Shown: one piece after another, positions 88-15,626 of the stretch | Layout: each line of letters begins with the position of its first letter | Numbering within the stretch: the first letter of the stretch is position 1 | Assembly: GCA_019637115.1 (NCBI GenBank) | Contig: JAHBWH010000190.1 | Span: 1-16,589, forward strand | From: Myxococcales bacterium | Lineage (GTDB): Bacteria; Myxococcota_A; Polyangia; Polyangiales; Houyiibacteriaceae | Reading direction: 5' to 3' | DNA length: 16,589 bases | Translations under genes and position numbers: made by a program | Notes under the pieces: generated by a model | What the model was told of the DNA's origin: nothing | Seen by the model: the letters and a program-made list of their open reading frames with translations, nothing else | Database searches by the model: none

Positions 88-328
88 TTGACCGCCGAAA
101 CGGCCCCTGGCGGCGGATTGGCGGCGGAGGGGGTGGCGGACGCCAGGTGGGGTGCCCGCGAGACGTCCCCAAACTGGAGGGTCGTCATCGGGCTGGCCTC
201 CCACCCGACATTCCCGTCCGACAAGTCTCGAGCCGACAAGTCTCGATGTTCTCAGGCGCCGAAATCCGCATTGAGAGCCGACCAACATCGAGACCAACCA
301 CCTCTCGAGGGCAAGCGGTGGCGCGCTC

Positions 329-988: not shown

Positions 989-1229
989 GGGTGGTTCTTC
1001 CAAAGGACGTCGGCCGGAGACCGACGCTGCGAGGGGGACTATGACTCCGGCGGCGTCCCCGTCGAGAACTGGTCCTCACGGTAAGGCACCGTTTGGACGA
1101 CGGGGGGTCCGGATCGTGACGTGACCGGGTGGGTCGAGCGAGAGCATGTGGCCAAGTCGCCCCGATGGCCAGCCCCCAATACAATTTTGTCTAACACTGG
1201 AAACCAACGTCTAGATTTGGCAAGGGCGT

Positions 1230-1895
1230 TCACCGGGCCTTCCGGAACGTCAGATTCACCCGCAAGGGGCCGAGCCGAGGGTGGCGGCCTTCGGGGACGG
1301 GGAGCACGCCATGATAGAAGAGACGTGAGGGACCGCCCCAGACGACCACGTCACCGTGGGTCAGGAGCAGGCGCACGGCGCGGTCGCGGCGGGTCGGGCC
1401 ACCGAAGAGGAACGTCGCGGGCAACCCGAGTGAGATGCTGACGATGGGCTGGTCGAGGTCCTCCTCGTCCTCGTCGCGGTGCAGCGTCATGCGCGCACCA
1501 GGCGCATAGTGGTTCACGAGGCAAGCGTCGGGGGTGAAGTCCACGTAGCCCGCGTGCGCTGCCGCGCGTGACGCCACGTCGGCGAACGAGGCCGGCATGG
1601 GCGGCCAAGGACGCCCGCTCGAGGGATCGCGGTCGGTGTAGCGGTAGCCCTTCCGGTCGGTCACCCACCCCACCGCGCCACAGCACGTGATCGCCGCCGA
1701 CATCGGCTTGCCGCCAGGGGTCGACATCCGTCGAGGCGGCGCCGCGGCGGCGACCGCCTCGACGGCGTCCATCAGCGCGTCGCTCGTCGGCGTCGCGAAG
1801 CCCCGCAGCAGGACCGCGCCAGGTCCGAACGCGCGCGGCGCCTCGGGCCCGAAGAGCGAGAGCGTCTGAACGTCGGCGAGTGGTCGCGCGGGCAC
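1230..1895 (-). CDS. alkB: alpha-ketoglutarate/Fe(II)-dependent dioxygenase AlkB (alkylated DNA/RNA repair)
   Basis: Contains the AlkB-family motifs NHYAPGARMTLHRDEDE (HxD), LFYHGV (distal His) and RVNLTFRKA (2OG-binding Arg). The N-terminus LFGPEAPRAFGPGAVLLRGFA aligns with the E. coli AlkB N-terminus. The ORF runs to an ATG at 1952, but the E. coli alignment favours a GTG at 1895 or 1931, so the start is uncertain. Confidence 0.8.
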   Translation of the reverse strand: MPARPLADVQTLSLFGPEAPRAFGPGAVLLRGFATPTSDALMDAVEAVAAAAPPRRMSTPGGKPMSAAITCCGAVGWVTDRKGYRYTDRDPSSGRPWPPMPASFADVASRAAAHAGYVDFTPDACLVNHYAPGARMTLHRDEDEEDLDQPIVSISLGLPATFLFGGPTRRDRAVRLLLTHGDVVVWGGPSRLFYHGVLPVPEGRHPRLGPLRVNLTFRKAR

Positions 1896-1950
1896 CTCGT
1901 CAGTGTGGGTCCTTTCACCCCCGGCGCCCACGTGCGAAGGTCGCCGTCGC

Positions 1951-2655
1951 ATGGAGGAGCTCCTCGCGATCGCGTTCGCGTTCCCGACCGTCGTCTACAC
2001 CGCGTTGGTGCTCGTCTCCCTCGTCTATTGGCTCGTGGGCATCGTCGGGCTCGTCGACATGGATCTCGGCGCCGACGGCGCGGTGGAGGCCGCCGCTGGC
2101 AAGGTCGACGGCGCGCTCGACGCCGCCGAGGTCGACGGCGCCGTCGACGCGAGCGAGGCCACCGACGGGATCTTCTCCTCGCTCCACTCCCTGCTCAGCG
2201 CGCTCCGACTGCGTCACGCTCCGCTGACCATCACCGCCAGCGTCCTCTTCCTCTTCGCCTGGGTCTTCTCCTACCTCGGCGCCCGCTACCTCGCGCCAGT
2301 GGTCCCCGGCCCCGAGCTCGTCGGCCAGCTCGCGGTCTTCCTCGGGGCCCTGGTGCCCGCGGTGCCACTGACCTCGCTGCTCACGCGACCGCTCGGGCCG
2401 CTCTTCCAGCGCAACCCAGGGCGGGGCAAGCGCGACCTCCTCGGCCACACCGGCCGCGTGCGCATCTCCGCCGCCGTCGGCGAGCGCGCGCAGATCCGCG
2501 TCCGCATCGGCGGTGACGACCTCCTCCTCCGCGCGCGCGCCGACGCCGAGCTGCCCACCGGCGCCGAGGTGCTGCTGGTCGACTACGACGAAGCGAACGA
2601 CACCTTCATCGCCGAGCCAATGTCGGCCGTGATGAACGACGAGTCGTCGCGCTGA
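1951..2655 (+). CDS. YqiJ/NfeD-like inner-membrane protein with C-terminal OB-fold beta-barrel (flotillin partner)
   Basis: About 235 aa. It has N-terminal hydrophobic helices (FAFPTVVYTALVLVSLVYWLVGIVGLV; ITASVLFLFAWVFSYLGARYL; LAVFLGALVPAVPLTSLL), an acidic DxD-rich loop, and a C-terminal beta-rich segment GHTGRVRISAAVGERAQIRVRIGGDDLLLRARADAELPTGAEVLLVDYD typical of short NfeD/YqiJ (DUF1449-type) proteins. It lies immediately upstream of, and on the same strand as, a flotillin gene, as in yqiJK and yuaF-floT. The start is set at the ATG at 1951; a GTG at 1903 is also possible. Confidence 0.6.
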   Translation: MEELLAIAFAFPTVVYTALVLVSLVYWLVGIVGLVDMDLGADGAVEAAAGKVDGALDAAEVDGAVDASEATDGIFSSLHSLLSALRLRHAPLTITASVLFLFAWVFSYLGARYLAPVVPGPELVGQLAVFLGALVPAVPLTSLLTRPLGPLFQRNPGRGKRDLLGHTGRVRISAAVGERAQIRVRIGGDDLLLRARADAELPTGAEVLLVDYDEANDTFIAEPMSAVMNDESSR

Positions 2656-2676
2656 GCCGCAGACCGAGCGGCGCCG

Positions 2677-2703
2677 AGAATCGGATCGCTCGGAACCGAT
2701 TCT
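2677..2703 (+). promoter_or_regulatory. 8-bp stem hairpin AGAATCGG-N11-CCGATTCT between the YqiJ-like and flotillin genes
   Basis: Perfect inverted repeat 22 nt downstream of the stop at 2655 and inside the 199-bp intergenic gap of the putative operon. A second inverted repeat GCTCGTG-gatga-CACGAGC lies at 2772-2790. Confidence 0.3.
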
Positions 2704-2854
2704 GCATTGCCCGCGGGTGGGGGGTGCTTACCGAGAAGCGCGCTCCCGACGGGCGGAGCGAAGCCGGTGACGCTCGTGGATGACACGAGCATCGCCGCTC
2801 GTGTAGATCAGCCAACCGCGAGCGGCGCCCGCCCGTTTGCGATGAGGGGAGACC

Positions 2855-4981
2855 ATGGACTCGAACACGTACGTGATCCTGATCGCCATCGGCGCAGGGT
2901 CGATCATCTTCTTCGGCCTCATCGCGATGGTCGCGAAGTTCTACCGCAAGGTCGACCAAGGGCGCGCCCTCATCATCAACCCCCTGCGTGGCGATCCCTG
3001 GGTCACCTTCGGCGGCGGCGTGGTGTGGCCGATCATCTACCGCGGCGAGGTCATGGACATCTCCGTCAAGACGATCGAGATCGACCGCCGCGGCAAGGAC
3101 GGGCTCATCTGCAAGGACAACATCCGCGCGGACATCTCCGTGACCTTCTTCGTGAAGGTGAACAAGACACCGGAGGACGTGCTCAACGTCGCGCAGCTCA
3201 TCGGCTGCGCGCGAGCCTCCGACCAGCAGACGATCGAGAACCTCTTCAACGCGAAGTTCTCCGAGGCCCTCAAGACCGCCGGCAAGAAGTTCGATTTCGC
3301 CGCGCTCTACGAGGAGCGCGAGCAGTTCCGCAAGGAGATCGAGGCGGTCATCGGCCAGGACCTCAACGGCTTCACGCTCGAGGACACCGCCATCGACTAC
3401 CTCGAGCAGACGCCGGTCGAGCTGCTCGACCCACAGAACACACTCGACGCCGAGGGTATCCGCAAGATCACCGAGATCACCGCGGCGCAGAACGTGAAGA
3501 CCAACGAGCTCCGTCAGGACGAGCGCATGAAGGTCGGCGCGGAGAACCTGAAGGCCGACGAGGCCGTCTTCGAGTTCGAGAAGCGTCGCGCCGAGGCCGA
3601 GGCGAAGAAGCACAAAGAGATCGCCGAGGCGCAGGCGAAGGCGGAGAACGAGGCCATCCGCGTGCGCGATCTCGAGCAGCGCATGACGATGATCGAGCGG
3701 CAGAAGCACGAGGAGGCGGTCGCGGTCGCCGCGGAGGCCAAGGCGCGAGGCGTCGCCATCGCCGAGAAGAACCGTGAGCGCGAGATCGCCGTCGAGACGG
3801 AGCGCGTCGAGAAGGCGCGGGCGCTCGAGGCGATCGGCCGGGAGCGCGAGACGGAGCTCGGCCGCATCCAGAAGGACAAGGAGGTCGAGGTCCAGAAGAA
3901 GGAGATCGCCGAGGTCGTCCGGACCCGTATCGTCGTCGACAAGTCGGTCGCCGAGGAGGAGGAGCGGATCAAGGATCTGCGCCTCGTCGCGGACGCGAAG
4001 CGCACCAAGGAGGCCACGATCATCACCGCCGAGGCGCAGGCCCAGGAGCTGCTCATCAAGCAAGTGAAGGCCGCCGAGGCGCAGGAGACCTCGGCCAAGC
4101 TCGAGGCGAAGCAGCGGCTCACGCTCGCCGAAGCCGACCTCGAGGTCGCCGACAAGGCGGCGCGCGGGAAGATGCGTTTCGCCGAGGGTGTCCAGGCCGA
4201 GGCAGCCGCGCCGGGCCTCGCCGAGGCGAGGGTCCGCGAGGCCACCGCGCAGGCCATCGAGAAGGAAGGGCTCGCGAAGGTCCGCGTCGACGAGGCGCAG
4301 GCCAGCGCGGTTCAGAAGCTCGGTCTCGCCGAGGCGGAGGTCGTGCGCGAGAAGCTCAAGGCCGAGGCCACCGGCGAGGAAGAGAAGGGGCTCGCCCAGG
4401 CGCGCATCGAGGAGGCCATGGCCGCCGCGATCGAGCGCAAGGGGCTGGCGGAGGCCGCGGCGATCGAGAAGAAGCTCGTCGCCGAGGCGACCGGTCTGGC
4501 CGAGAAGGCGACGGCGATGAAGGCGCTCGACGGCGTGGGCCGCGAGCACGAAGAGTTCCGCATCCAGCTCGAGAAGGAGAAGGAGGTGGAGCTCGCCGAG
4601 GTCGAGGCGAAGAAGGACATCGCCCGCGCGCAGGCCGACGTGATGGCCAAGGCGATGGAGAGCGCGAAGATCAACATCGTCGGCGGCGACGGCGCCTTCT
4701 TCGATCGCTTCGTGAAGGCGGTCTCGCTCGGCAAGTCGGCGGACGGCATGATCGAGGAGAGCTCCACGCTCAAGGCGCTCCTCTCGGACTACCTCACGGG
4801 GAACGGCAGCCTCCCGCAGGACCTCAAGGAGGTGCTGAGCCGGCCTGCGCTCGACTCGACCGCGGTCCGCAACCTCACCATCTCGGCGGCCCTCTCGAAG
4901 TTCATGTCCGGCGCCGACGGCGTCACGCGGGAGAAGCTCCAGAAGCTGATCGACCGCGCCAAGGACATGGGCCTCGAGTGA
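2855..4981 (+). CDS. yqiK: flotillin-family SPFH/Band-7 protein (YqiK/FloT type), unusually long (708 aa)
   Basis: It has an N-terminal TM helix (YVILIAIGAGSIIFFGLIAMVAKFYRK) and an SPFH domain (RALIINPLRGDPWVTFGGGVVWPIIYRGEVMDISVKTIEIDRRGKDGLICKDNIRADISVTFFVKV) that aligns with YqiK-type flotillins. A long Glu/Ala/Lys-rich coiled-coil region and a C-terminal flotillin tail (NIVGGDGAFFDRFVKAVSLGKS) follow. There is an RBS GAGGGGAG upstream of the ATG at 2855. Confidence 0.85.
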   Translation: MDSNTYVILIAIGAGSIIFFGLIAMVAKFYRKVDQGRALIINPLRGDPWVTFGGGVVWPIIYRGEVMDISVKTIEIDRRGKDGLICKDNIRADISVTFFVKVNKTPEDVLNVAQLIGCARASDQQTIENLFNAKFSEALKTAGKKFDFAALYEEREQFRKEIEAVIGQDLNGFTLEDTAIDYLEQTPVELLDPQNTLDAEGIRKITEITAAQNVKTNELRQDERMKVGAENLKADEAVFEFEKRRAEAEAKKHKEIAEAQAKAENEAIRVRDLEQRMTMIERQKHEEAVAVAAEAKARGVAIAEKNREREIAVETERVEKARALEAIGRERETELGRIQKDKEVEVQKKEIAEVVRTRIVVDKSVAEEEERIKDLRLVADAKRTKEATIITAEAQAQELLIKQVKAAEAQETSAKLEAKQRLTLAEADLEVADKAARGKMRFAEGVQAEAAAPGLAEARVREATAQAIEKEGLAKVRVDEAQASAVQKLGLAEAEVVREKLKAEATGEEEKGLAQARIEEAMAAAIERKGLAEAAAIEKKLVAEATGLAEKATAMKALDGVGREHEEFRIQLEKEKEVELAEVEAKKDIARAQADVMAKAMESAKINIVGGDGAFFDRFVKAVSLGKSADGMIEESSTLKALLSDYLTGNGSLPQDLKEVLSRPALDSTAVRNLTISAALSKFMSGADGVTREKLQKLIDRAKDMGLE

Positions 4982-4987
4982 GGCGCG

Positions 4988-5022
4988 CGCCGCGCGTCGA
5001 CCTTCGGGCTCGACGCGCGGCG
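4988..5022 (+). terminator. GC-rich hairpin (13-bp stem, 9-nt loop CCTTCGGGC) directly after the flotillin stop codon
   Basis: CGCCGCGCGTCGA pairs with TCGACGCGCGGCG as a perfect inverted repeat 7 nt downstream of the TGA at 4979-4981. There is no U-tract, as is common in high-GC genomes. Confidence 0.5.
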
Positions 5023-5205
5023 TGACCATCCCCCCTTCGGGCCGCCCCCTTCGGGTCGACGCTCCGCCCGCTCGGACCTCGAGGTGCCCGAGAGCGCTCC
5101 CCGAGGGCGCGCACCACGACCTTCGCGAACCCATGCTGCGCCGAGGCCCTCCCTCGGCCCGGCGGTCCCGGCGACGCTCCGTCGCCCAGCAGAGGATGAG
5201 CTCGC

Positions 5206-8200
5206 ATGGCAGACGACAGCGAGACCGAGACCGCCCTCGAAGGCGGGAACTACGAGGTGGTCCGGGCGCGCCTGGTCGCGCAGGCGAAGGAGCTCGGCGC
5301 CCGCATCGATCGGCTCAACGAGCGGCGCCGCGAGGTCTTCGGCGGCACCGAGCTCGAGGTGGTCGCGAACGAGCGCGTGCGCACCGAGAACAACTGCGTC
5401 CCACGCGACATCGTGAACGTCGGGGGCCAGCTCCTCTTCGGCTACAACGTCTTCCTCGGGCTGAAGAAGGAGACGACGGTCGGCGACATCCTCTCGGTGC
5501 ACCGCTTCGCCGAGACCGCGGACGGCTACGATCTCGGCGAGGTCCCGGCCCTCGAGGTCGACTTCCTCGCCGACGAAGGCTTCCGCAAGGAGCTCACGAC
5601 GCTCTACTCGTACTTCAAGGAGGCGCGCCTGCTGCAGCTCCGGAAGACCGACACGCGCTTGCTCGCGGTCTTTCAGATCGGCGCCTCGACGAGCGAGATC
5701 CGCGTCTTCCGCTGGCGCATCGATCCGAGCGGGCGCGTCACCTTCATGGACGCCCGCGGCGAGGGCGACCACGTCTTCCCGAAGGCGTACGACTTCGAGT
5801 GGGTGCCGGTCACGCGCAACGATCAGGTCCAGGGCCGCTACCCGCACCTGTCGATCCTCGACGAGATCTTCGTCGAGACCACCGGCGGCGACCTGACGAT
5901 CAAGGTGGAGAACAACACGGAGACCGGCCGAGGCATCTACGCCGAGCCGGTCGACGACCCGAACCAGGCGCTCGACGACGCGCAGGTCCGTTACGCGAAG
6001 GTCGGCAGCCTCATCCTGCTCGAGATCCTCCCCTTCCGTGAGCAGAGGAAGCGCTACTTCGTCTACAACGGCCGGATCCAGCGCGTGACACGCATCGACG
6101 CGATCGGCACGGCCTGCCGGAGCCTCCCCGAGGACCAGGGCATCCTCTTCCCGGGCGGCTTCTACCTCGAGACGGGCGAGCAGAAGATCTTCGACGAGGA
6201 CGTCGCGGGGCTCGAGCTCAAGCGCGTGATCCAGTCACCGAACGGCGAGGACATGCTCTACGTCTTCCACCGTCGCGACGAGGGCCTCTACCAGCTCCTG
6301 CCCTACAACGTGATCCGCAAAGAGCTGCAGACGCCGATCCGCGCGCACGGCTTCAGCCTCTTCGACGACGGAAAGATGGTCGTCTTCCGCGCGACCGAAG
6401 AGCCGACGCGCGTGCACCCGATGCAGATCTGGCGGACGCCCTTCACGAGCGCCGAGTACGCCGCCAAGGCCCCCACGAACGGCTCTTTCCTCGCGAAGGT
6501 GGGCAACGCAGATCTCGTCCGCGGCGTGAGCGACTGCTTCACCATCCGCCGGCTGATCGAACGCGCCGAGCCGAGCCGCGCGAACTACGAGGTGCTGATC
6601 AAGACGATCACCCGCACCCTCGACGCCTATTACTGGCTCGGCCACGAGGAGGTCGGCGCGCTCGACGCGAGCCTCACGGAGCTGCGGCGCACGGCCGAGC
6701 TCATCGTCGACGAGTTCGAGAAGCTGCTCGCGCTGCGGCAGCGAGCGGCCGCCGAGCTCGACGTGGCGAAGGCGAAGCAGGCCGAGATCCTCGCGAACGT
6801 CCGCGCCGCCGAGCTGAGCTCGGTCGAGGGCTTCATGCGCGCCCTCACGCAGCTCCGCCACCAGCGCGGGGCGCTCATCACGCTGAAGGAGGTCCGCTAC
6901 GTCGATCTCGAAGCAGCGGACGCGCTCGAGGCGGAGATCGTCGAGCAGTTCGACCGGGTGAGCCGGGCGTGCGTGAGCTTCCTGCTCGGTGACGACGCCC
7001 TCGTCCCGATCCGCGGCCGGCTCGAGGCCATCCTCGCGCGCGTGGACGAGTGCCGCACCGTGGCCGAGATGGCGCCGCTCGGCGCCGAGCTCGACGAGAC
7101 GGGTGAGGGCCTCGACGTGATCAGCGAGATCGTCCAGGGCCTCGACGTCGACGACGCGACCGCGCGCACGCAGATCCTCGAGGGCATCAGCGAGGTCTAC
7201 GCGCTCCTCAACCGCGTGCGCGCCAGCGCGGTCGCGCGTCGGCGCGAGCTCGCGAGCCAAGAGGGGCGCGCGGAGTTTGGCGCGCAGTTCAAGTTGCTCG
7301 CCCAGGCCGTGAGCAGCGGGCTCGCGCTCGCCGAGACACCCGAGCGGTGCGACGAGCAGCTCTCGCGCCTGATGGTGCAGCTCGAGGAGCTCGAAGCGCG
7401 CTTCAGCGAGCTCGACGAGTTCACGGCCGACCTCGCGGTCAAGCGCGAGGAGATCTACGAGGCCTTCAGCACCAAGAAGCAGGCACTCCTCGACGCGCGG
7501 CAACGCCGCGCCGAGGGGCTGATGGACGCGGCGAGCCGCATCCTCGAGGGCGTCGGCCGGCGAGCGCGCACGTTCAAGGCGCCGGACGAGCTCCACGCCT
7601 ACTTCGCGTCGGACCCGATGGTCACCAAGCTGCGCCAGATCGGCGCGCAGCTCCGAGAGCTCGGCGACTCGGTGAAGTCCGACGAGGTCGACGCGCGCAT
7701 GAAGAGCGCGCGCCAGGACGCGCTCCGCGCGCTGCGCGATCAGGTGGACCTCTTCGAAGAAGGCGACCTCATCCGGCTCGGCAAACACCGCTTCAGCGTG
7801 AACACCCAGCCGCTCGAGCTGACGATGGTGCCCCGCGGCGATCGCATGGCGATTCACCTCACGGGCACCGACTTCTACGAGCTCGTCGACGATCCCGAGC
7901 TCGAGGCCACGCGGCCCTATTGGTCGCAGGAGCTCGTCTCCGAGACGCCGACGGTCTATCGGGCCGAGTACCTCGCGACGGGCATCCTCTTCGACGCCGA
8001 AGAGAACCGCGACGGCCTGACCATCGAGGCGCTCCACGAGGCGCAGCGCACCGAGGGCGGCCTCGCCGAGGTCGTGCGGCGCGTGGCGTCGACGCGCTAC
8101 GACGAGGGCTACGACCGAGGTGTCCACGACGCGGACGCGACGCTCATCCTCGAGAAGCTGCTCACCCTCCGCGACTCGGCGGGGCTCCTTCGCTACGCCG

Positions 8201-10671
8201 CGACGCCGCGCGCGCTCGCCTGCCTCTTCTGGGCGCACGCGCCGTCGCCGATGGACGTCGCGCGAGGCGCGTCCACCCTCGACTCGCGCCCGCGGGGCGC
8301 CCCCGACGACGGGATGAAGACGGATGCCGCGCGGGGCATCCGGATCGATCGCGACGCGCTCCACCGGCGCGCGCGGAGCCTCGGTCGCCTGCGCCACGCC
8401 TTCGGGCACACCGACGAGCTCGCGGCCTTCGGACAGGAGCTCGCGGCCCACATCCGCTCTTTCCACACCGCGCACGGCATCCCGTGCACCGAGGGCGAAG
8501 CGCGCCTCGCGGGGCGCTATCTCGTCGAGGAGCTGATGGTCGAGCGGCCCCGCTTCGCGACCAGCGCGGACGCCACGCAGCTCCGTGACGCGCTGCTCCG
8601 CCGCCTCGACCTCGACGGCACGCGCCGCGCGTTCGAGGAGGACCTCGAGGCGAGCGGCGGCGGCCTGCGCGCGCGCCTCGCGCTCGTCCACGCCTGGCTC
8701 GACGCCTTCGTGCGGCGCAGCGACCGCGACGCCGCGAGCCCGGTCACGAGCGCGGCTAGGGGCCCGGTCGCGAGCCACGGCGTCGCCCACCTCGCTCACG
8801 CGAGCTTCGAGGCCGCCGCGCTCCTGCTCACGCCCAGCCTCGACCGCGAGCCCTCCAGCGCGCTCACGCGCGCCGAGGTGGAGGGTCTGCTCGGCCAGCA
8901 CCCGCGCATTCAGGGTCGGACGATGTCGCTGCGCCTCGACGAGACGCTGGAGCGCCTCAGCGAGTTCGTCCACCACCGCGTGCCCGGCTACCGCAGCTAC
9001 CGTGAGGTGCGCCACGGCTTCCTGGAACGCCAGCGCGTCCGGCTGCGGCTCGACGAGTACAAGCCGCAGGTGATGAGCGCCTTCGTGCGCAACCGGCTCA
9101 TCAACGAGGTCTACCTGCCGATCATCGGAGACAACCTCGCCAAGCAGCTCGGCGCGGCGGGGGCGGGCCGGCGGACGGATCTCATGGGCCTCCTCCTGCT
9201 CGTCTCACCGCCCGGCTACGGCAAGACGACGCTGATGGAGTACGTGGCCAACCGACTCGGGATGGTCTTCATGAAGGTGAACGGCCCGAGCCTCGGGCAC
9301 TCGGTCACCTCGCTCGACCCGGAGGAGGCGCCCAACGCCACGGCGCGGCAGGAGGTGGAGAAGATCAACCTCGCCTTCGAGATGGCGCAGAACGTGATGC
9401 TCTACCTCGACGACATCCAGCACACGCACCCGGAGCTCCTGCAAAAGTTCATCTCGCTCTGCGACGGCACGCGGCGGGTCGAGGGCGTCTGGAAGGGGCG
9501 CACGCGCACCTACGATCTGCGCGGCAAGAAGTTCTGCGTCGTGATGGCGGGCAACCCGTACACGGAGAGCGGCGAGAAGTTCCAGATCCCCGACATGCTC
9601 GCGAACCGCGCCGACACGTACAACCTCGGCGACATCCTCGAAGGGCGCGAGGAGGTCTTCGCGCTCAGCTACATCGAGAACGCGCTCACCTCGAGCCCCG
9701 CGCTCGCGCCGCTCGCGACGCGCGACCAAGGCGACGTCTACAAGGTCGTGCGCATGGCCAAGGGCGAAGAGGTGGCGACGAGCGAGCTCTCGTACGGCTA
9801 CGCCGCGGGCGAGCTCGAGGAGATGAAGACGGTCCTGCGCCACCTCTTCCGGGTGCAGGACGTGCTGCTGCGCGTGAACGCCGAGTACATCCGGAGCGCG
9901 TCGCAGGCCGACGCCTTTCGCACCGAGCCCCCCTTCAAGCTGCAGGGCAGCTACCGCAACATGAACAAGCTCGCCGAGAAGGTCGTCGCGGCGATGAACG
10001 ACGACGAGGTCGAGCGGCTCGTCGACGACCACTATCTCGGCGAGTCGCAGACGCTCACGACCGGCGCGGAGCAGAACCTGCTCAAGCTCGCGGACCTCCG
10101 CGGTCGACTCGCCCCCGAGCAGGCGGAGCGCTGGACGCAGATCAAGCGCGAGTTCGTCCGTCTACGCTCGCAGGGCGGCGGCGACGACGACCCGGTCACC
10201 CGGCTGACGGGGACGCTCTCGGGCCTGGGCCGCGAGCTCGAGTCGATCCGCGACACGATCCTCACGGCGGCCGAGCGCGCGGCGGCGGCGCGCGCCGCGA
10301 GCGAGCTCGCGGCCGAACGCAGCGCCGTCGACCGCGCGCGCGCGACCCACGACACGAACGGCGACGCCTTGCTCGCGGCGCTGGGCCCGAAGCTCGACCA
10401 GCTCGGCGAGGCCCTGGCGCGCCTCGCGAGCCCGAAGGTCGAGGTCAAGCTCGAGGCCCCCTCGCCGGGCCCCCTCACCAGCCGAGAGCTCGGGGCGACC
10501 GCCGATCAGCTCGCGGCGCAGGCAGAGCTCTTCGAGCGCACGCTCCTCCCCATGGTCCAGAGCACCACCCGGAACCTGGACGACACGAAGTCGCTGCACG
10601 ACCACATCATCCAGCTCCTCGACCTCGTGCGACGCATGGACACGAAGTTGCGAGAGACCTACGGCCTCTGA
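5206..10671 (+). CDS. giant (1821 aa) uncharacterised protein with a single C-terminal-proximal AAA+ ATPase module of the MoxR/AAA_5 (dynein-related) class
   Basis: This is an uninterrupted 5.47-kb ORF with high GC3. It starts at an ATG with AGAGGA 12 nt upstream. Walker A LLLVSPPGYGKTTLMEY is encoded at 9214-9231, Walker B NVMLYLDDIQH at about 9400-9414, and sensor-1 FCVVMAGNPY after it (LDDIxx...LxxLxD....R......FxxxxxxNP spacing as in AAA_5). The N-terminal 430 aa or so are beta-rich, the middle roughly 900 aa are alpha-helical and acidic, and the C-terminal 320 aa or so form a helical tail. Beyond the AAA+ module I recognise no homologue. Confidence 0.85.
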   Translation: MADDSETETALEGGNYEVVRARLVAQAKELGARIDRLNERRREVFGGTELEVVANERVRTENNCVPRDIVNVGGQLLFGYNVFLGLKKETTVGDILSVHRFAETADGYDLGEVPALEVDFLADEGFRKELTTLYSYFKEARLLQLRKTDTRLLAVFQIGASTSEIRVFRWRIDPSGRVTFMDARGEGDHVFPKAYDFEWVPVTRNDQVQGRYPHLSILDEIFVETTGGDLTIKVENNTETGRGIYAEPVDDPNQALDDAQVRYAKVGSLILLEILPFREQRKRYFVYNGRIQRVTRIDAIGTACRSLPEDQGILFPGGFYLETGEQKIFDEDVAGLELKRVIQSPNGEDMLYVFHRRDEGLYQLLPYNVIRKELQTPIRAHGFSLFDDGKMVVFRATEEPTRVHPMQIWRTPFTSAEYAAKAPTNGSFLAKVGNADLVRGVSDCFTIRRLIERAEPSRANYEVLIKTITRTLDAYYWLGHEEVGALDASLTELRRTAELIVDEFEKLLALRQRAAAELDVAKAKQAEILANVRAAELSSVEGFMRALTQLRHQRGALITLKEVRYVDLEAADALEAEIVEQFDRVSRACVSFLLGDDALVPIRGRLEAILARVDECRTVAEMAPLGAELDETGEGLDVISEIVQGLDVDDATARTQILEGISEVYALLNRVRASAVARRRELASQEGRAEFGAQFKLLAQAVSSGLALAETPERCDEQLSRLMVQLEELEARFSELDEFTADLAVKREEIYEAFSTKKQALLDARQRRAEGLMDAASRILEGVGRRARTFKAPDELHAYFASDPMVTKLRQIGAQLRELGDSVKSDEVDARMKSARQDALRALRDQVDLFEEGDLIRLGKHRFSVNTQPLELTMVPRGDRMAIHLTGTDFYELVDDPELEATRPYWSQELVSETPTVYRAEYLATGILFDAEENRDGLTIEALHEAQRTEGGLAEVVRRVASTRYDEGYDRGVHDADATLILEKLLTLRDSAGLLRYAATPRALACLFWAHAPSPMDVARGASTLDSRPRGAPDDGMKTDAARGIRIDRDALHRRARSLGRLRHAFGHTDELAAFGQELAAHIRSFHTAHGIPCTEGEARLAGRYLVEELMVERPRFATSADATQLRDALLRRLDLDGTRRAFEEDLEASGGGLRARLALVHAWLDAFVRRSDRDAASPVTSAARGPVASHGVAHLAHASFEAAALLLTPSLDREPSSALTRAEVEGLLGQHPRIQGRTMSLRLDETLERLSEFVHHRVPGYRSYREVRHGFLERQRVRLRLDEYKPQVMSAFVRNRLINEVYLPIIGDNLAKQLGAAGAGRRTDLMGLLLLVSPPGYGKTTLMEYVANRLGMVFMKVNGPSLGHSVTSLDPEEAPNATARQEVEKINLAFEMAQNVMLYLDDIQHTHPELLQKFISLCDGTRRVEGVWKGRTRTYDLRGKKFCVVMAGNPYTESGEKFQIPDMLANRADTYNLGDILEGREEVFALSYIENALTSSPALAPLATRDQGDVYKVVRMAKGEEVATSELSYGYAAGELEEMKTVLRHLFRVQDVLLRVNAEYIRSASQADAFRTEPPFKLQGSYRNMNKLAEKVVAAMNDDEVERLVDDHYLGESQTLTTGAEQNLLKLADLRGRLAPEQAERWTQIKREFVRLRSQGGGDDDPVTRLTGTLSGLGRELESIRDTILTAAERAAAARAASELAAERSAVDRARATHDTNGDALLAALGPKLDQLGEALARLASPKVEVKLEAPSPGPLTSRELGATADQLAAQAELFERTLLPMVQSTTRNLDDTKSLHDHIIQLLDLVRRMDTKLRETYGL

Positions 10672-10872
10672 GCGCCACCAGCTCTGCCGCGCCATCTGAG
10701 CGCTCCCGCTCCGACACCTCATCGGCAGGGTGCGCGGGCCATCGACGCACATCGACGCACATTGGGGGCTCGGCGTCAGAGTCATCGTGATCGACACAGC
10801 GGCGCGCCAGCCCGAGCGACGATTGACACACCGTGGCACGACGAAGGTGCTCGCTGGGACGGAACGGCTCGC

Positions 10873-10891
10873 CCTCGTCTGGGTGACGAGG
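10873..10891. terminator. 7-bp stem hairpin CCTCGTC-tgggt-GACGAGG in the convergent intergenic region
   Basis: Perfect inverted repeat between the convergent giant-ATPase gene (end 10671) and the E2-like gene (end 10928). It could serve either transcript. Confidence 0.3.
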
Positions 10892-10927
10892 CGACGCCGC
10901 CGCAACGCCTGAGCCCTCTCCGGACGC

Positions 10928-11773
10928 TCAATCCCCACGGCGCCCGTCGCCGCCCCCACGCGGTGGAGCCTGCGCCGAGGCCCGCGCGATGTCGTCGTCG
11001 AGCCCCTCGGCCGCGGCCACCCGTCGCGCGAGCTCACCGACGAAACGTGCGAGCGGTCCTCCGTCGACGATCGCGTGGTTCGCGCTCACGGTGACGCAGA
11101 GCACCTCGCGGGGCGCGGTATCGTTGGGGTCGGTCGACGCCCGAGTCGTCGTCCCCCCGACGATCACGGAGAGATCGTGCAGGCCAGGCGCGCTCAGCCC
11201 ATAGCCCGCGCCCGAGCCGAACATGCCGACCGCCGACACGAGGGCCGAGCCGGTGTGTCGCTGCGCGAGCTCCGGCGCGGCGAGCAGCGCGCGATACGAA
11301 GCCCGCCGAACGACGCTCGGCAGCGCGAGGAGCGCGCGCGTCGCGCGGCGCTTCGCGGGCGAGGTGGTGCGCATGCCTCGCTCCCGCACCGAGCGCAGCT
11401 CGTCGTGCAGCGCGCGCGGCCCGCGACGGTCGATCCCACGGAGGACGTGGGCGTACGGGAACGAGCGCCCTTCGTGCTCGACCTCGACGATCGTCGTCAC
11501 GTCCACCTCGTCGAAGAGCACGAGCCGCCCCCGCCAATCTCGCCGGGCGTGGACCTCGGGGTGATGTGCGAGCGCGCCCCCGAGCGCGTGCAGGAAGAAC
11601 GCGGTCAGCGACGGTGACCCCCCGTCGCGCTCGCGCTGGGCTCGCAGCCTCCGGTGCGCGAGCGTCACGTCGAGCTCCACGAGGCCGTGCATCATCGGCT
11701 TGCCGCGGCCGAGGTGGAGCGTGTCGAGCACCAAGCGTCGCTCCGGCGGGAAGGGAACACGTCGCGCAGACAT
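10928..11773 (-). CDS. stand-alone 2-oxoacid dehydrogenase E2-type acyltransferase catalytic domain protein (no lipoyl domain)
   Basis: RVPFPPERRLVLDTLHLGRGKPMMHGLVELDVT matches the start of E2 catalytic domains (PLS..RR.IA..M...PH.T...EVDVT). The C-terminal TVSANHAIVDGGPLARFVGEL corresponds to the catalytic S-x-DH-R-x-x-DG segment, with His and the DG Asp retained. The start is set at the ATG at 11773; the longer 448-aa ORF upstream is only a read-through of the palindromic repeat array (poly-RA/SP translation). Confidence 0.7.
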   Translation of the reverse strand: MSARRVPFPPERRLVLDTLHLGRGKPMMHGLVELDVTLAHRRLRAQRERDGGSPSLTAFFLHALGGALAHHPEVHARRDWRGRLVLFDEVDVTTIVEVEHEGRSFPYAHVLRGIDRRGPRALHDELRSVRERGMRTTSPAKRRATRALLALPSVVRRASYRALLAAPELAQRHTGSALVSAVGMFGSGAGYGLSAPGLHDLSVIVGGTTTRASTDPNDTAPREVLCVTVSANHAIVDGGPLARFVGELARRVAAAEGLDDDIARASAQAPPRGGGDGRRGD

Positions 11774-11804
11774 GCGCGGAGCATAGCTCCGTGCAGAGCG
11801 CGGC

Positions 11805-12040
11805 GGGCTCGCACGCGAGAGCGGGCTCGCTCGCGAGCGCGGGCTCGCACGCGAGGCACACCGGGCTCGCACGCGAAGCGCAGCGGGCTGCACGCGAGGG
11901 CGGGCTCGCAAGCGAGCGCGGGCTCGCAAGCGAGCGCGGGCTCGCAAGCGAGCGCGGGCTCGCTCGCGACGTGCAGCGGGCTCGCAAGCGAGCGCGGGCT
12001 CGCGCGCGAAGCGCAGCGGGCTCGCACGCGACGTGCAGCC
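11805..12040. repeat. tandem array of about 12 imperfect palindromic units (18-bp GGGCTCGC-NN-GCGAGCGC and 22-bp variants ending GYGCAGC)
   Basis: The units are read directly from the sequence: gggctcgcacgcgagagc, gggctcgctcgcgagcgc, gggctcgcacgcgaggcacacc, gggctcgcacgcgaagcgcagc, gggctgcacgcgagggc, three identical gggctcgcaagcgagcgc, gggctcgctcgcgacgtgcagc, gggctcgcaagcgagcgc, gggctcgcgcgcgaagcgcagc, gggctcgcacgcgacgtgcagcc. Each unit carries a 5-6 bp inverted repeat (CTCGC/GCGAG) around a variable 2-bp centre. The array has no spacers and sits between divergent genes. Confidence 0.85.
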
Positions 12041-12306
12041 GATCGGCCGCGCGCGGGACGCGGATCCGCGTCGACGCGCACCGGACGAGCGACAACGCGC
12101 GTATGCGTCGGGGAATGCGCGCTCGAGCGGCGCGCGACCCGCCGCGGGCACGCGCCGTGCTTCACGCGGGGCGTGCCGTGGGGGGCGCGGAGGCGTGCCG
12201 CCACGGCGAGCGTAGGGCCACGTGGTGGCTCTGGGTGTGGTGGCGTCGTGTCGCGGGCCGCGAGCGGCGGCCACACGCCCTCATCTCGGCGGAGGAAGAA
12301 GAGAGT

Positions 12307-13803
12307 ATGTGGAAGAGACATCCGTTCTCATGGAATCGATCAGCGACGCTGTTGGTGGCTTCGCTCGCGCAGGCTTGCATGATGTCGCCGACGGACGGGA
12401 CCGAGCTCGCGTCGACATCGTCGGCTGTTTCGTTCAGCGGCTACGCCACCAGCGCGTCTCAAGAGGTGCAGGTCGAAGCCTTCAACCCCTCGACGCGCGC
12501 CTGGGTCGCGATCGCGTCCCCCGTCCCTGCCAGTGGCGCCACGCAGACCCTTTGGGGATCGCAGTGGCACGGCTGGAGCCTCAACCGCGCGATCCCGAGC
12601 GTCTACTGGACCCCCGGCGCGGCCGGCGCCAGCGCGCGAGTCCGCGCTCGCCTCACGACGGGGAACACCGTGGTCTCCGGACATGAAGATGCGTGGACGT
12701 GCCTCGCGCAGTCCGGCAGCAGCGCCGACTTCGTCGAGCGCTGCACGGTGCCGGAGACGACGATCTGTACGAGCAACTTCCTGCCGTTCTCGGCGCGGCG
12801 CAGCCCTTGCCCGCCGCGCTCGCTCCGCTTCACGCCGACCTCGGGCGCGCGCACCTACGTGCGCCTCCCCGACGCGACGACCACGGGCGTGATCCCGACC
12901 GCCACCCGGACGATCGAGTGGCGCGGTGACGCGGCCAGCTTCGTGGATCTCTTCGACGCGATCCCGGGCCCGGAGGGGTTCTCGCGAGGCGGCGTCAACG
13001 TGGTCCGCGTCCGCTATCCGAGCGACCGGAACGTGGACGCTCACGTGAGGGTCGACCCGGTCGCGCTCTCCGCCAGCGTACCCCGGCCGATCCCTCCGGG
13101 GTTCGGCGCCGCGCGCACGTATCGCCAATACGACGTCGGCGAGTGCTCGCTGTTCATGGGGTGGCGCAACCTGCTCACCGACTCCATCGCGCCCGCGCTC
13201 GAGGAGAGCCTCCGGGGGATCGTGCTCCCCGAGATCGGGGCCGTGGACGTGTATCCGCTCTCGCGCCTCGAGCTCTTCCCGGTGCTGCGGTCGGACGGCC
13301 AAGACGCCGTCCGCTTCGCCGGCCGCTTCAACCTCGTCTCGCACTCGCTGGGAGACCTGGGCAACGCGCTGATCGCCATCAACGTGCGGATCACGGCTCG
13401 TGGGGGTCGGATCACCGCGACCGTGGAGCCCGACGCGAGCAACGTCGTCTACGACCCGCAGGGCTTCGGCGCGCTCGGGATCGCGTTCGGAGTGCGGACC
13501 CGTGAGCAAGTGGAGACACGCATCCGGACGCGGATCGCAGCCGAGATCCCGAACAGGCTCACCGCCCTGCTGCCGGCGCAAGCCGCTCTCGTCGCCATCG
13601 ATCGCGTCGACGTTCGCGTGGACGGCATGAACGTCGTGCTCGCCGAGACGCGTCAGGACACTCAGTATGACCTGCTGCGCCTCGCCGGCCTCTGCAACCG
13701 GCCGGCGATTCTCCCCGGCGGCAACGAGGCGGGGATCCTCTTCTCCTACTTCGATCCGCCTTCGCCGGGTGACCCTCGTCCGCTCGGCGAGACGAGGCCC
13801 TGA
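12307..13803 (+). CDS. secreted hypothetical protein (499 aa) with a cleavable signal peptide
   Basis: It has an ATG with GGAGGAAGAAGAG upstream. The N-terminus MWKRHPFSWNRSATLLVASLAQA|CMMS has a basic n-region, a hydrophobic core and an AQA signal peptidase I site. There are eight Cys in the mature protein. I recognise no domain. The longer ORF-track version starting at 11566 reads through the repeat array and is rejected. Confidence 0.7.
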   Translation: MWKRHPFSWNRSATLLVASLAQACMMSPTDGTELASTSSAVSFSGYATSASQEVQVEAFNPSTRAWVAIASPVPASGATQTLWGSQWHGWSLNRAIPSVYWTPGAAGASARVRARLTTGNTVVSGHEDAWTCLAQSGSSADFVERCTVPETTICTSNFLPFSARRSPCPPRSLRFTPTSGARTYVRLPDATTTGVIPTATRTIEWRGDAASFVDLFDAIPGPEGFSRGGVNVVRVRYPSDRNVDAHVRVDPVALSASVPRPIPPGFGAARTYRQYDVGECSLFMGWRNLLTDSIAPALEESLRGIVLPEIGAVDVYPLSRLELFPVLRSDGQDAVRFAGRFNLVSHSLGDLGNALIAINVRITARGGRITATVEPDASNVVYDPQGFGALGIAFGVRTREQVETRIRTRIAAEIPNRLTALLPAQAALVAIDRVDVRVDGMNVVLAETRQDTQYDLLRLAGLCNRPAILPGGNEAGILFSYFDPPSPGDPRPLGETRP

Positions 13804-13838
13804 TCGGCGCGGCTCCGAGGAGCGACAGAGGCGCGCGT

Positions 13839-13867
13839 CGGCCCGAGCGCCGGCGCGCGTCGGGCCG
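13839..13867 (+). terminator. 8-bp stem GC hairpin (CGGCCCGA...TCGGGCCG) 36 nt after the stop of the secreted-protein gene
   Basis: Inverted repeat with a 13-nt GC-palindromic loop and no U-tract. Confidence 0.35.
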
Positions 13868-14005
13868 CGTCGAGGGCGTGAGCCCCTTCCGGCGCCGCGC
13901 GACCACGTGAGTCGCGCGACGCCGGGGCGAACCCGGGCGAGCGAGGCGGGCGCTCCGCCCCGAGCGAGTCGCGCCGCTCGGCCCCGATTCGGGTAGGCTC
14001 GCCCG

Positions 14006-14599
14006 GTGCACGCGCGCGTCGCTCCTGCGAGCCCCACCCACGATCTGAAGCTGAGCTTCATCGGCACGCACGGCGTCGGCAAGACGACCCTCTGCTACGG
14101 CCTCGCCGCCCGCCTCAAGGCCCAGGACGTCGTCCTCGACATCGTCCACGAGGTCGCCCGGCGTTGCCCGCTCCCCATCAACGAGTCGACGAGCCTCGCG
14201 GCCCAGTCCTGGATCCTCCACACCCAGATCGCCGACGAGCTCGTCGCGTGCTCACGGCACCCGGTCGTCGTCTGCGACCGGAGCGTGCTCGACAACTACG
14301 TCTACCTGCTCCTCTCCGGCCGCGCGGGCGCGGGCCTCGAAGCGCTCGTGACGAGCTGGCTGCCGAGCTACGCGCTGCTCGTCTACGTGCCGATCGTCGA
14401 CGCGCCGCGCGCCGACGGGCTCCGCTCGACGGACCCGGAGTTCCAGCGCGCGGTCGATCAGCGGCTGCGCCGAGAGCTCGAGCGACGAGGCGTCGCCCCG
14501 CTCGTGCTCGATCCGCTCGCCCGCGAGGCGTGGCTCGACGTGGTCGAGGCAGCCGTGCTCGCGCGCATCGCCTCGCCGCAGCTTCCGCTGCTCGGATAG
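14006..14599 (+). CDS. small P-loop NTPase (AAA_28/NadR-kinase-like predicted ATPase or nucleotide kinase)
   Basis: Walker A FIGTHGVGKTTLCYGL lies right at the N-terminus. A hydrophobic strand ending in Asp (PVVVCDRS) is a Walker-B-like element. The roughly 190 aa size and layout resemble AAA_28 kinase-like proteins. The start is a GTG at 14006. Confidence 0.6.
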   Translation: MHARVAPASPTHDLKLSFIGTHGVGKTTLCYGLAARLKAQDVVLDIVHEVARRCPLPINESTSLAAQSWILHTQIADELVACSRHPVVVCDRSVLDNYVYLLLSGRAGAGLEALVTSWLPSYALLVYVPIVDAPRADGLRSTDPEFQRAVDQRLRRELERRGVAPLVLDPLAREAWLDVVEAAVLARIASPQLPLLG

Positions 14600-14607
14600 G
14601 CGCGCGA

Positions 14608-14624
14608 GCCGTCGAGGACGGCTT
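14608..14624 (+). terminator. 7-bp stem hairpin AGCCGTC-gag-GACGGCT immediately after the P-loop gene
   Basis: Perfect inverted repeat 9 nt after the stop at 14599, followed by T-containing CTTCCCCAT. Confidence 0.35.
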
Positions 14625-14688
14625 CCCCATCGGCGCCGCGCGGTAGTACGGTCGGCGTGGCGGCCCTTCGGGCGCGCGGAGGTCGGAC

Positions 14689-15318
14689 GTGACGAGAGCC
14701 CCCAAACCCCCTGTCGTCGGGTGCCCCGTGCTGCGAGCGCTGTTGATGCGTCACGCAGAGATCTTCGGCTCGGATCAGGAGCTCGAGCCCGTCATCGTCG
14801 AAGCGCTCCGAGCATCGCATCGTGACGACAAGAAGGAGGCGAAGGCGCTCGCGGAGCTGCACGTCGAGCGCGCGCTCTCGTTCAACCGGGCCCGCCTCGC
14901 TGCCTTGCTCCAGCGATTGCCGAGCTACGAGGCGGACGCCGCCGCGATCCGCGCGATCGCCCCTCGCCCCACGCCGAAGACCTCGAAGAGCTGGGGCGAG
15001 GAGCTCTACGCAGTCGGCGCGCGCCTGATGGAGGCCGAGCTCGCCGCGCGACCCGAGCCGGAGCCCGCCCTCGAGCGTGAGGCCGCGGCGGCCGGGCGAG
15101 CGTGGATCGGTGTCACGGTCTGGCCGGCAGAGCTGAAGGGGATCCGTTGGTGGGGAGAGGCGACGGACCTCGGCTCCGCGTGCCAAACGGCGGCCGAGAC
15201 CGCAGGTCGGCTCGACGCGTGGCTCGCGTGGCCCGATGAGGCAGCCGCAGCGGCTCGGGTCGCATCGCTGAAGCCGCCGTCGTTCGAGGCGTACCTCGGC
15301 GCACTCGAGGGGCGCTGA
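14689..15318 (+). CDS. hypothetical protein (about 209 aa, helical, Ala/Glu/Arg-rich)
   Basis: It is an ORF with coding-like GC3 bias. A GTG start at 14689 has GGAGG 9 nt upstream; an alternative ATG lies at 14746 (MRHAEIF). I recognise no motifs. The overlapping antisense ORF 14458..15186 is judged spurious. Confidence 0.5.
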   Translation: MTRAPKPPVVGCPVLRALLMRHAEIFGSDQELEPVIVEALRASHRDDKKEAKALAELHVERALSFNRARLAALLQRLPSYEADAAAIRAIAPRPTPKTSKSWGEELYAVGARLMEAELAARPEPEPALEREAAAAGRAWIGVTVWPAELKGIRWWGEATDLGSACQTAAETAGRLDAWLAWPDEAAAAARVASLKPPSFEAYLGALEGR

Positions 15319-15352
15319 AGCGCGACCGCCGACGCGAGCTGCCAGCCCGTGG

Positions 15353-15607
15353 TCACGCCCCGAGGCGCGTCGCCAACGCGAGGTAGGCGTCGCCCGCGGC
15401 CTCTCGGCTCATGCCCTTCTTCGCGGCCCACGCATCCCATTTGGCGCGACCGCGCACGTCGAGCATGCCCGGTCGGCTACCCGTCACGTCGCCGACCGTC
15501 GCTTGTTTGTAGAGCGCGTAGAGGGCGAGCATGTCGGAGGTCCCGGGTGTGCTCGGCAAGGAGTTCACGCGCTGGACCGCCGCTTCGAGCTCTTCTCGCG
15601 TCGCCAT
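15353..15607 (-). CDS. acyl-CoA-binding protein (ACBP)
   Basis: This is an 84-aa protein with the hallmark ACBP motifs LALYALYKQATVGD and KWDAWAAKKGMSREAA (the KWDAW box). The ATG is at 15607; the ORF-track start at 15610 is a GTG one codon upstream. Confidence 0.85.
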   Translation of the reverse strand: MATREELEAAVQRVNSLPSTPGTSDMLALYALYKQATVGDVTGSRPGMLDVRGRAKWDAWAAKKGMSREAAGDAYLALATRLGA

Positions 15608-15626
15608 CACGCGACGCTACCAGCCA

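Follow-up and report, generated by a model that had tools for sequence, protein, structure and literature searches.

A giant AAA+ protein of the BacE family encoded behind a flotillin gene in a Myxococcales genome: a putative remodeller of membrane scaffolds

Background

The bacABCDEF operon ('biofilm-associated cluster') of Pseudomonas aeruginosa is the closest described counterpart of the locus treated here, a cassette of three genes in a stretch of 16,589 nucleotides (nt) from a Myxococcales bacterium (contig JAHBWH010000190.1, positions 1 to 16,589; this whole stretch is called the window), the last of which encodes a giant AAA+ protein of 1821 amino acids (aa). The six bac genes are co-transcribed according to reverse transcription PCR, PA14_16190 was named bacE, and BacB to BacF are all up 6- to 13-fold in a bacA mutant (Wallart et al. 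2024, PMC10948618). BacB is PspA-like and is induced by osmotic shock (Mace et al. 2008, PMC2587700), and PA3728-PA3732 were upregulated in all phage-infected P. aeruginosa samples of another study (PMC12041424). According to a further report, PA14_16160 is a short NfeD protein and PA14_16180 is the flotillin PaFlo3 (PMC13086221). Ravi et al. 2024 described the same operon and proposed ATP-dependent membrane remodelling for it; they named the protein type of its giant 'Betapropeller+Coiled-coil+AAA-ATPase', assigned the small protein type to YqiJ/YuaF from profile-profile searches, and reported more widely distributed 'abbreviated operons' without PspA (PMC11237479). A 2025 review states that bacteria appear to be without a Vps4-like ATPase for PspA (PMC7619361).

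The window carries its three-gene cassette at positions 1951-10671, all genes being encoded on the + strand:

1951..2655, + strand: small protein of 234 aa with three transmembrane segments, probably the BacC or YqiJ-YuaF-type partner (ATG at 1951; the mechanical open reading frame (ORF) runs from GTG 1903)
2855..4981, + strand: long flotillin-type SPFH protein of 708 aa, homologue of BacD/PaFlo3 (Pfam Band_7, E 3.3e-9)
5206..10671, + strand: giant DUF3686-DUF7902-AAA+ protein, 1821 aa plus stop, member of the BacE/PA3728 family

This cassette is one of the abbreviated operons of Ravi et al. 2024. It is practically certain that the giant is a full-length member of the DUF3686-DUF7902-AAA+ family. 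Since its gene almost always directly follows a flotillin gene, the protein is most likely part of a module for membrane stress and not of DNA repair. Taking family membership and function together, we read it, with a probability of roughly 0.6, as a BacE-family ATPase that remodels flotillin/PspA membrane assemblies. The Pfam models, the NCBI name, the published architecture and operon, and the P. aeruginosa gene name were already known.

Results

The linkage to flotillin was derived from tblastn and blastp searches of the window genes against fetched loci (83 and 85 loci from five phyla). A flotillin homologue was present in 80 of 83 and in 82 of 85 loci, nearly always immediately upstream of the giant gene and on the same strand. 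Two of the three misses occurred on contigs with almost no upstream DNA. In 60-69 of 84-85 loci, a homologue of the small protein was found at the corresponding place. Apart from the three cassette genes, no neighbour was conserved across the loci as a whole. These flotillin and YqiJ-YuaF operon partners directly upstream are the most informative feature of the locus, and an earlier reading made from the sequence alone (the sequence-only reading) had overlooked them. The trio is also found on plasmids, where RefSeq annotates it as 'hypothetical - SPFH domain-containing protein - DNA repair ATPase' (pQBR103) and as 'hypothetical - flotillin family protein - DNA repair ATPase' (a Streptomyces plasmid). 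A full-text literature search for flotillin together with 'AAA+ ATPase' and Streptomyces gave no match.

A few loci deviate from this arrangement. The only one with 10 kb of upstream DNA and without a flotillin homologue belongs to a metagenome-assembled genome (MAG) of Labilithrix sp. In a Sorangium locus and in a Myxococcales MAG the flotillin gene lies 5-8 kb upstream of the giant gene and not adjacent to it; in the Sorangium locus two opposite-strand genes are located between them. On the P. fluorescens megaplasmid pQBR103 (positions 56-5830 of the fetched locus) the cassette is preceded by DUF2491, DUF350, DUF1190 and glutathionylspermidine synthase family genes. This arrangement corresponds to the polyamine-linked Psp-type module of Ravi et al. 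2024, with no annotated PspA in the stretch shown.

In the window flotillin, an N-terminal transmembrane segment recognised by hydropathy (aa 3-30) and the Band_7 domain (aa 32-211) are followed by a long Glu/Ala-rich coiled coil and a C-terminal domain that is conserved. Full-length comparison with the Sorangium and Archangium neighbours gives 56-58% identity, and RefSeq names the homologues of this flotillin 'flotillin family protein' or 'SPFH domain-containing protein'. The small protein, as judged by hydropathy, combines three hydrophobic segments with an acidic Ala/Asp/Gly linker and a soluble C-terminal domain of ~80 aa. It gave no Pfam or NCBIfam match, and NfeD and YqiJ profiles were negative in four orthologues at E-values up to 10. 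Its topology of three transmembrane segments plus a C-terminal soluble domain, and its place upstream of the flotillin gene, agree with the NfeD / YqiJ-YuaF family. Its identity to the Archangium neighbour is 29%; Met1 of that neighbour falls opposite residue 17 of the GTG ORF, and the real start of the small protein is probably ATG 1951.

Pseudomonas loci connect the trio to the longer operon. In one of them (L041), a CesT/Tir-like DUF2170 protein and a PspA_IM30 protein are encoded before the trio and a PLDc_2 protein after it; the DUF2170 protein matches the NCBIfam BacA equivalog with E 1.9e-103. In P. aeruginosa (L084) the gene order is DUF2170, PspA, a 213-aa protein, a 688-aa protein, the 1746-aa giant (DUF3686/AAA), PLD, YaeQ, RecJ and an M4 protease. 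The latter we take to be LasB (PA3724) on the PAO1 map, and the giant of this locus is therefore PA3728, at positions 7001-12241 of the locus. The P. aeruginosa giant is BacE, that is PA3728 and PA14_16190, and L084 is the bacABCDEF operon (PA14_16140-16200). Within the sampled loci the six-gene form occurs in Gammaproteobacteria only: PspA was found in 15/85, PLD in 10/85 and BacA in 16/85 loci (tblastn with the L041 BacA and BacB). The window is not among the positive loci; the scanned window ORFs gave no Pfam match to DUF2170 or PspA, and a PLD/HKD hydrolase gene downstream of the giant is not present in the window. As a side aspect, three independent longitudinal studies found PA3728 ('ATPase') mutated in cystic-fibrosis isolates, according to a review table (PMC8190622), and the large size of PA3728 alone might explain this recurrence.

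The giant gene is real and intact. It is the longest ORF of the window, with 1821 codons and an ATG start two codons past an upstream stop. Its GC content at codon positions 1, 2 and 3 (0.72/0.43/0.95) is typical of a real gene in a sequence of ~70% GC. The protein aligns end to end, with 99-100% coverage and 54-70% identity, to more than 100 homologues of 1740-1970 aa, and in two alignments it was collinear over its full length with 27 and with 99 homologues. At least 120 homologues with such coverage show the same set of Pfam domains. Because of this end-to-end agreement, together with the uniform GC content at third codon positions (GC3), a frameshift or misassembly, which the sequence-only reading had kept in view, is ruled out.

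An identical sequence is already deposited at NCBI as 'MAG: DNA repair ATPase [Myxococcales bacterium]', Pfam describes PF12458 as 'ATPase involved in DNA repair', and some sources (JGI) label homologues 'MoxR-like ATPase'. Two homology searches, each of which scored 8000 candidates, resulted in 4371 and 6114 relatives. DUF3686 and DUF7902 occur in all of the 240 matches listed, and an AAA-type domain in nearly all of them. The DUF3686 domain forms 779 clusters at 50% identity and is always N-terminal in full-length relatives, which measure ~1450-2040 aa. A scan of species-representative genomes found relatives of the giant in at least 567 genomes. The best 80 of these are 46-60% identical to the giant and belong to the Myxococcota, Actinomycetota (Nocardiopsis, Nonomuraea, Streptomyces, Amycolatopsis), Gammaproteobacteria (Pseudomonas, Xanthomonas, Xenorhabdus, Methylomonas), Planctomycetota and Acidobacteriota. 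PF12458, PF25472, the position of the AAA+ module, its motifs and the context of flotillin and three-transmembrane protein all place the window protein in this family. Hence the view that ~1330 aa upstream of the AAA+ module are unannotatable does not hold, as two Pfam domains (aa 29-476 and 597-681) lie there, and neither does the view that the architecture is atypical, because thousands of relatives share this fixed layout.

The giant is a predicted soluble cytoplasmic protein composed of a propeller, ~420 aa of helical bundles, two further conserved domains, an AAA+ module with a pre-sensor-1 hairpin and a helical tail. Hydropathy analysis revealed no transmembrane or hydrophobic segment, which is why a cytoplasmic location is predicted. 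Its parts outside the AAA+ core, all on the + strand, are as follows (AF2, AlphaFold2):

5290..6633: DUF3686 domain, aa 29-476 (Pfam PF12458, E 1.5e-198)
6487..7749: all-helical region, aa 428-848, with helices of 20-58 residues; includes DUF7902
6994-7248: DUF7902, aa 597-681 (Pfam PF25472, E 2.5e-26)
7753..8238: small conserved beta/alpha domain, aa 850-1011 (AF2: beta-hairpins at aa 855-893, then five helices)
8353..9105: conserved, mostly helical pre-AAA domain, aa 1050-1300 (AF2, conservation profile)
9646..10155: helical lid and post-AAA region, aa 1481-1650 (conservation, AF2 helices; R1572-x-EPPFxLQGSYRN motif)
10156..10668: variable C-terminal tail, aa 1651-1821 (AF2: three long helices, pLDDT 43-82)

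Two AF2 models were available, one of aa 1-1015 built from 100 aligned sequences, with a mean predicted local distance difference test score (pLDDT) of 87.7, and one of aa 1016-1821 with a pLDDT of 78.4. The PF12458 match scored 660 bits against a cutoff of 25 and covered profile positions 1-448 of 448. In this region, with pLDDT mostly above 90, the model shows an N-terminal helix (aa 15-45) packed on a beta-propeller of ~28 strands (aa 51-410). Foldseek against the PDB gave 52 matches with E<=1e-3 for the N-terminal part, and those identified were beta-propeller proteins (Elp1, MED16, IFT-A, PON1, prolyl oligopeptidase, YncE, Vps18; E down to 2e-6). Model and Foldseek matches thus confirm a propeller in the N-terminal ~430 aa, which the sequence-only reading had suspected from their beta-rich character, and the model also confirms its description of a helical middle (aa 428-848). 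A protocoatomer-like reading, with a propeller followed by a solenoid as in the IFT-A, Nup and Vps18 matches, was rejected at TM-scores of 0.06-0.16, the long helices forming bundles and not a solenoid.

Invariant residues of the domain at aa 850-1011 include W906, Q908, S912, E913, R919, E921, G968, Y969, H974 and D975. The pLDDT of the pre-AAA domain exceeds 90 for aa ~1055-1175, and conservation drops to 0.26-0.47 in the C-terminal tail. Two window-specific, in-frame low-complexity insertions rich in Ala/Arg/Pro/Gly/Ser flank the pre-AAA domain, at 8248-8355 (aa ~1015-1050) and 8716-8805 (aa ~1171-1200). Most of the 119 closest homologues lack these stretches or have a different sequence there (column conservation 0.07 and 0.12), and the pLDDT is below 50 over aa ~1016-1047 in the first and 57-66 in the second. 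They look like lineage-specific loop expansions.

Comparison of seven sub-segments of the giant against each other by hhalign revealed no internal repeats (probability at most 6%), a Pfam scan found no MIT domain, and NCBIfam and PADLOC scans returned Walker-A-level matches only. In searches of PDB sequences with the single protein and with a family profile, matches extended over no more than the first ~90 residues of the AAA+ module, around Walker A; hence no relative with a solved structure was recovered. Matches to p97, Rix7 and NVL were confined to the Walker A region or to aa ~1296-1417, with E 1e-4 or weaker.

The AAA+ core comprises the following elements on the + strand:

9163..9645: AAA+ alpha/beta core, aa 1320-1480 (Pfam AAA/AAA_5, conserved motifs, AF2 strands, Foldseek)
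9214-9231: Walker A GYGKTT, aa 1337-1342 (translation)
9400-9414: Walker B LYLDD, aa 1399-1403 (translation)
9553-9555: N1450 of the GNP sensor-1 region, aa 1449-1451 (translation)
9607-9609: R1468, candidate arginine finger, carried by the ESGEKFQIPDMLANRAD segment, aa 1454-1470
9955-9957: R1584, candidate sensor-2 arginine, at the helix start in the QGSYRN motif

GYGKTT, LYLDD, GNP and ESGEKFQIPDMLANRAD were found exactly where the sequence-only reading had placed them, and these Walker-like motifs are not coincidental. Pfam AAA (PF00004) scored 35.1 bits against a cutoff of 21.2 (E 2.2e-8, within aa 1330-1455). AAA_5 also passed its gathering threshold with 27.2 bits against 22 (aa 1330-1455), a marginal match that overlaps the stronger one. 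PPGYGKTT, DDIQH, GNPYT, PDMLxNRAD and QGSYRN are each at least 98% conserved among 377 unique homologues (at least 49% identity in the region), and so are R1468 in PDMLxNRAD, the candidate arginine finger, and R1584 in QGSYRN. The paired arginine fingers of the classical AAA clade were not found; the family has one near-invariant arginine (R1468) after sensor 1. From motif conservation, the AAA+ module appears to be an ATPase under selection and is probably active. The argument for a single functional module therefore stands in this form (aa ~1320-1650), and the catalytic motif set described as intact is present and conserved, except that Walker B reads hhhhDD and not the canonical hhhhDE. This box resembles the DnaA-type 'DDIQ' box.

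In the AF2 model, helix 3 and the sensor-1 strand are separated by a beta-hairpin (aa 1424-1437), which represents a pre-sensor-1 hairpin. In the stretch from beta2 (aa 1354-1359) to the helix at aa 1378-1393, this monomer model without nucleotide has a coil and a short helix, and no hairpin. The nearest AAA+ folds in Foldseek were RuvB, NorQ/CbbQ (MoxR family), Skd3, PspF and MCM (E 3e-3 to 0.1, probability up to 1.0). Two segments of the module stand out in the model. At window positions 9160-9213 (aa 1319-1336) the pLDDT is below 50, with a helix instead of the beta1 strand expected before Walker A, and confidence is also low in the arginine-finger segment at 9562-9621 (aa 1453-1472). Despite this, both are among the most conserved stretches of the giant, and they may be ordered only in the oligomer or the nucleotide-bound state.

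Around the cassette, an AlkB-like 2OG-Fe(II) oxygenase gene (1230-1952, - strand; Pfam 2OG-FeII_Oxy_2, E 3.5e-56) is divergently oriented. It overlaps the small-protein ORF from GTG 1903, and with the start at ATG 1951 this overlap is reduced to 2 nt. The gene was not found beside the cassette elsewhere (0/83 loci). Nor did the other loci contain homologues of the acyltransferase-like and AAA_28 genes or of ORF 14689 of the window; for the genes of GTP cyclohydrolase II and flavodoxin, a single homologue each was found. Downstream of the giant gene, one ORF on the opposite strand is 2-oxoacid_dh-like and further ORFs have no Pfam match. Among the latter, two overlapping opposite-strand ORFs span 11566-14082 (11566-13803, + strand, 745 aa; 12340-14082, - strand, 580 aa); neither had a Pfam match and both failed the GC3 coding filter. 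A perfect 13-bp GC-rich inverted repeat (CGCCGCGCGTCGA / TCGACGCGCGGCG) with a 9-nt loop and no T-run after it is located at 4988-5022. It begins 7 nt past the flotillin stop, inside the 224-nt gap before the giant gene, and could form an mRNA-stabilising or attenuating hairpin that sets the ratio of flotillin to ATPase expression. A promoter and terminator scan of positions 1700-11200 gave nothing above shuffled expectation.

Discussion

Our functional model of the giant as an ATP-driven remodeller of a membrane scaffold is tentative when taken by itself, at slightly less than even odds. The flotillin and the three-transmembrane protein would together form an oligomeric scaffold lining the cytoplasmic membrane from inside. 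Through its propeller and helical arms the giant would attach to this scaffold and so be recruited to the membrane; where PspA is present, the PspA polymer may offer a further docking site. An oligomeric AAA+ ring of the giant would bind and hydrolyse ATP and, under envelope stress, would assemble, disassemble or remodel the scaffold or clients trapped in it, in a working mode analogous to that of Vps4 on ESCRT-III or of FtsH inside the HflK/C cage.

Several observations weigh against this model. It is gene order alone that suggests a physical contact between the giant and flotillin or PspA. The window cassette is without a PspA gene; therefore, any link to PspA would have to act in trans. In PA14, deletion of paFlo3 reduced biofilm by only ~20% and caused no change in growth, in oxidative-stress survival or in the virulence, pyocyanin, protease and swimming assays considered (PMC13086221). 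In the AAA+ module, the catalytic glutamate of Walker B is replaced in at least 98% of the family (LYLDD, followed by IQH), and this may point to slow, switch-like hydrolysis rather than to a processive motor. No aromatic pore-loop motif can be seen after beta2 (NGPSLGH), and this speaks against an unfoldase of the classical threading type. The Foldseek E-values of the AAA+ part are weak, none being <=1e-3, and AF2 is unconfident at the beta1/Walker A stretch and at the segment following sensor 1 (aa 1319-1336 and 1453-1472).

The database names would make the giant a RuvB-like DNA repair ATPase acting on DNA, and RuvB is indeed its best Foldseek match and a sub-threshold Pfam match; moreover, the AlkB-like gene lies divergently upstream in the window and recJ three genes downstream in P. 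aeruginosa. However, RuvB_N reached 21.5 bits against a gathering score of 27 over aa 1318-1365, the Walker A region, only, and the NCBIfam RuvB equivalogs scored 19-22 bits against cutoffs of 282-299. Pfam, NCBIfam and PDB searches detected no DNA-binding or nuclease domain in the giant, no repair gene is conserved near the family, whose conserved partners are membrane proteins only, and full-text literature searches gave no matches for DUF3686, PF12458 or 'DNA repair ATPase' with flotillin. We consider a role in DNA repair highly improbable. Annotation is also part of the case for a maturation chaperone of the MoxR/AAA_5 type, which would insert a cofactor into or activate some other complex and which flotillin would just place at the membrane. 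The 'MoxR-like ATPase' label, the AAA_5 match above threshold and the presence of NorQ and CbbQ among the best structural neighbours speak for it, and the QGSYRN motif resembles the sensor-2 region of MoxR. Such a function is nevertheless very unlikely: neither a VWA-domain partner nor a conserved candidate client enzyme was found in the window ORFs or conserved neighbours, the helix-2 insert hairpin is not predicted in the monomer model, and the 1821-aa layout is entirely unlike the MoxR proteins of ~300 aa.

Large propeller-plus-NTPase proteins are common in conflict systems, and the giant might instead serve such a system, anti-phage or other, as its motor or sensor. In the long version, the PLD/HKD protein, encoded after the giant in the 10 PLDc_2-positive loci, would then be the effector, nuclease-like or a lipase. 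The induction of PA3728-PA3732 in phage-infected cells and a patchy distribution within Pseudomonas that resembles horizontal gene transfer (PMC13086221) would fit. Phage induction is, however, also classic for Psp envelope-stress genes, and the core cassette has no recognisable effector. The best PADLOC-DB 2.0 matches (IetA, mad8, TRIP13; E 0.004-0.03) cover only ~30-50 residues around Walker A, the giant gene was found by tblastn in 0 of 50,697 phage records and in 13 of 72,556 plasmid records, mostly megaplasmids, and defence genes rarely show an identity as high as the 46-60% over ~1800 aa seen here across five phyla. We therefore regard this explanation as quite unlikely. The remaining alternative, a protease-less extractase or holdase that acts on membrane or unfolded proteins in flotillin microdomains and not on the scaffold, draws on the same synteny evidence as the scaffold remodeller. 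Staphylococcus aureus FloA-NfeD is reported to stabilise unfolded proteins in microdomains (PMC11222466, also cited in PMC13086221), and HflK/C cages are cited as enclosing the AAA+ protease FtsH (PMC13086221). Beta-propellers, furthermore, often bind peptides. The lack of an aromatic pore loop, of a protease domain and of a conserved protease partner, as well as the DD Walker B, count against it, and it appears unlikely, though the least so of the four. It differs from the scaffold remodeller in substrate only, and the present data do not separate client from scaffold.

Taken together, the family is large and highly conserved across phyla and represents the only ATPase consistently linked to bacterial flotillins. 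It is a concrete candidate for a Vps4-like role or for controlling SPFH scaffolds in an ATP-dependent manner. All conserved context (flotillin, YqiJ/YuaF-type protein, PspA) is membrane-related, so that 'DNA repair ATPase' is a name without support from context and almost certainly misleading. A more far-reaching proposal is that the BacE family is the long-sought bacterial counterpart of Vps4, an AAA+ machine whose propeller and helical arms grip flotillin cages, and PspA/ESCRT-III-like polymers where these occur, for ATP-driven assembly, turnover or membrane repair. We regard this as doubtful; if true, such a machine would have its minimal, PspA-independent form in the three-gene cassette of myxobacteria.

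Comparison with known AAA+ systems

The nearest solved AAA+ folds, RuvB and NorQ/CbbQ, share with the giant the features of the pre-sensor-1 hairpin superclade and one AAA+ module per chain, but the similarity is weak (E 3e-3 to 0.1, 13-15% identity). Unlike RuvB and MoxR proteins, the giant lacks a RuvB winged-helix domain as well as RuvA and VWA partners, and it has ~1300 additional residues at its N-terminus. The FtsH-HflK/C system resembles the cassette in that an SPFH-family scaffold is paired with an AAA+ machine at the cytoplasmic membrane. In contrast to FtsH, which belongs to the classical AAA clade, the giant is without a transmembrane anchor and a protease domain, and its pairing is backed by operon linkage only.

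With Vps4/CdvC and ESCRT-III, the common element is an AAA+ ATPase genetically coupled to a membrane-remodelling polymer system. PspA, a member of the Snf7/PspA superfamily, is encoded in the operon of the giant in Gammaproteobacteria, and PF00004 matches above threshold. In other respects the giant is unlike Vps4: it has no MIT domain, has a predicted pre-sensor-1 hairpin, which the classical AAA clade does not have, and has one conserved arginine in the finger region. It is four to five times larger, with propeller and helical bundles, and its universal partner is flotillin, not PspA. The structural neighbours of its AAA+ part in Foldseek are RuvB, NorQ, PspF and MCM rather than p97 or Vps4. 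The resemblance to Vps4 would thus concern the proposed working mode only and not family membership.

The closest counterpart is the bac operon itself. Compared with it, the window cassette is without DUF2170 (BacA) and PspA (BacB) upstream and PLD (BacF) downstream, and the window giant, unlike BacE, has two private low-complexity insertions. Gammaproteobacterial BacE relatives are 46-50% identical to the window giant, and BacE (PA14_16190/PA3728) shares with it the Pfam architecture, the length class (1746 vs 1821 aa) and the place after a small transmembrane protein and a flotillin.

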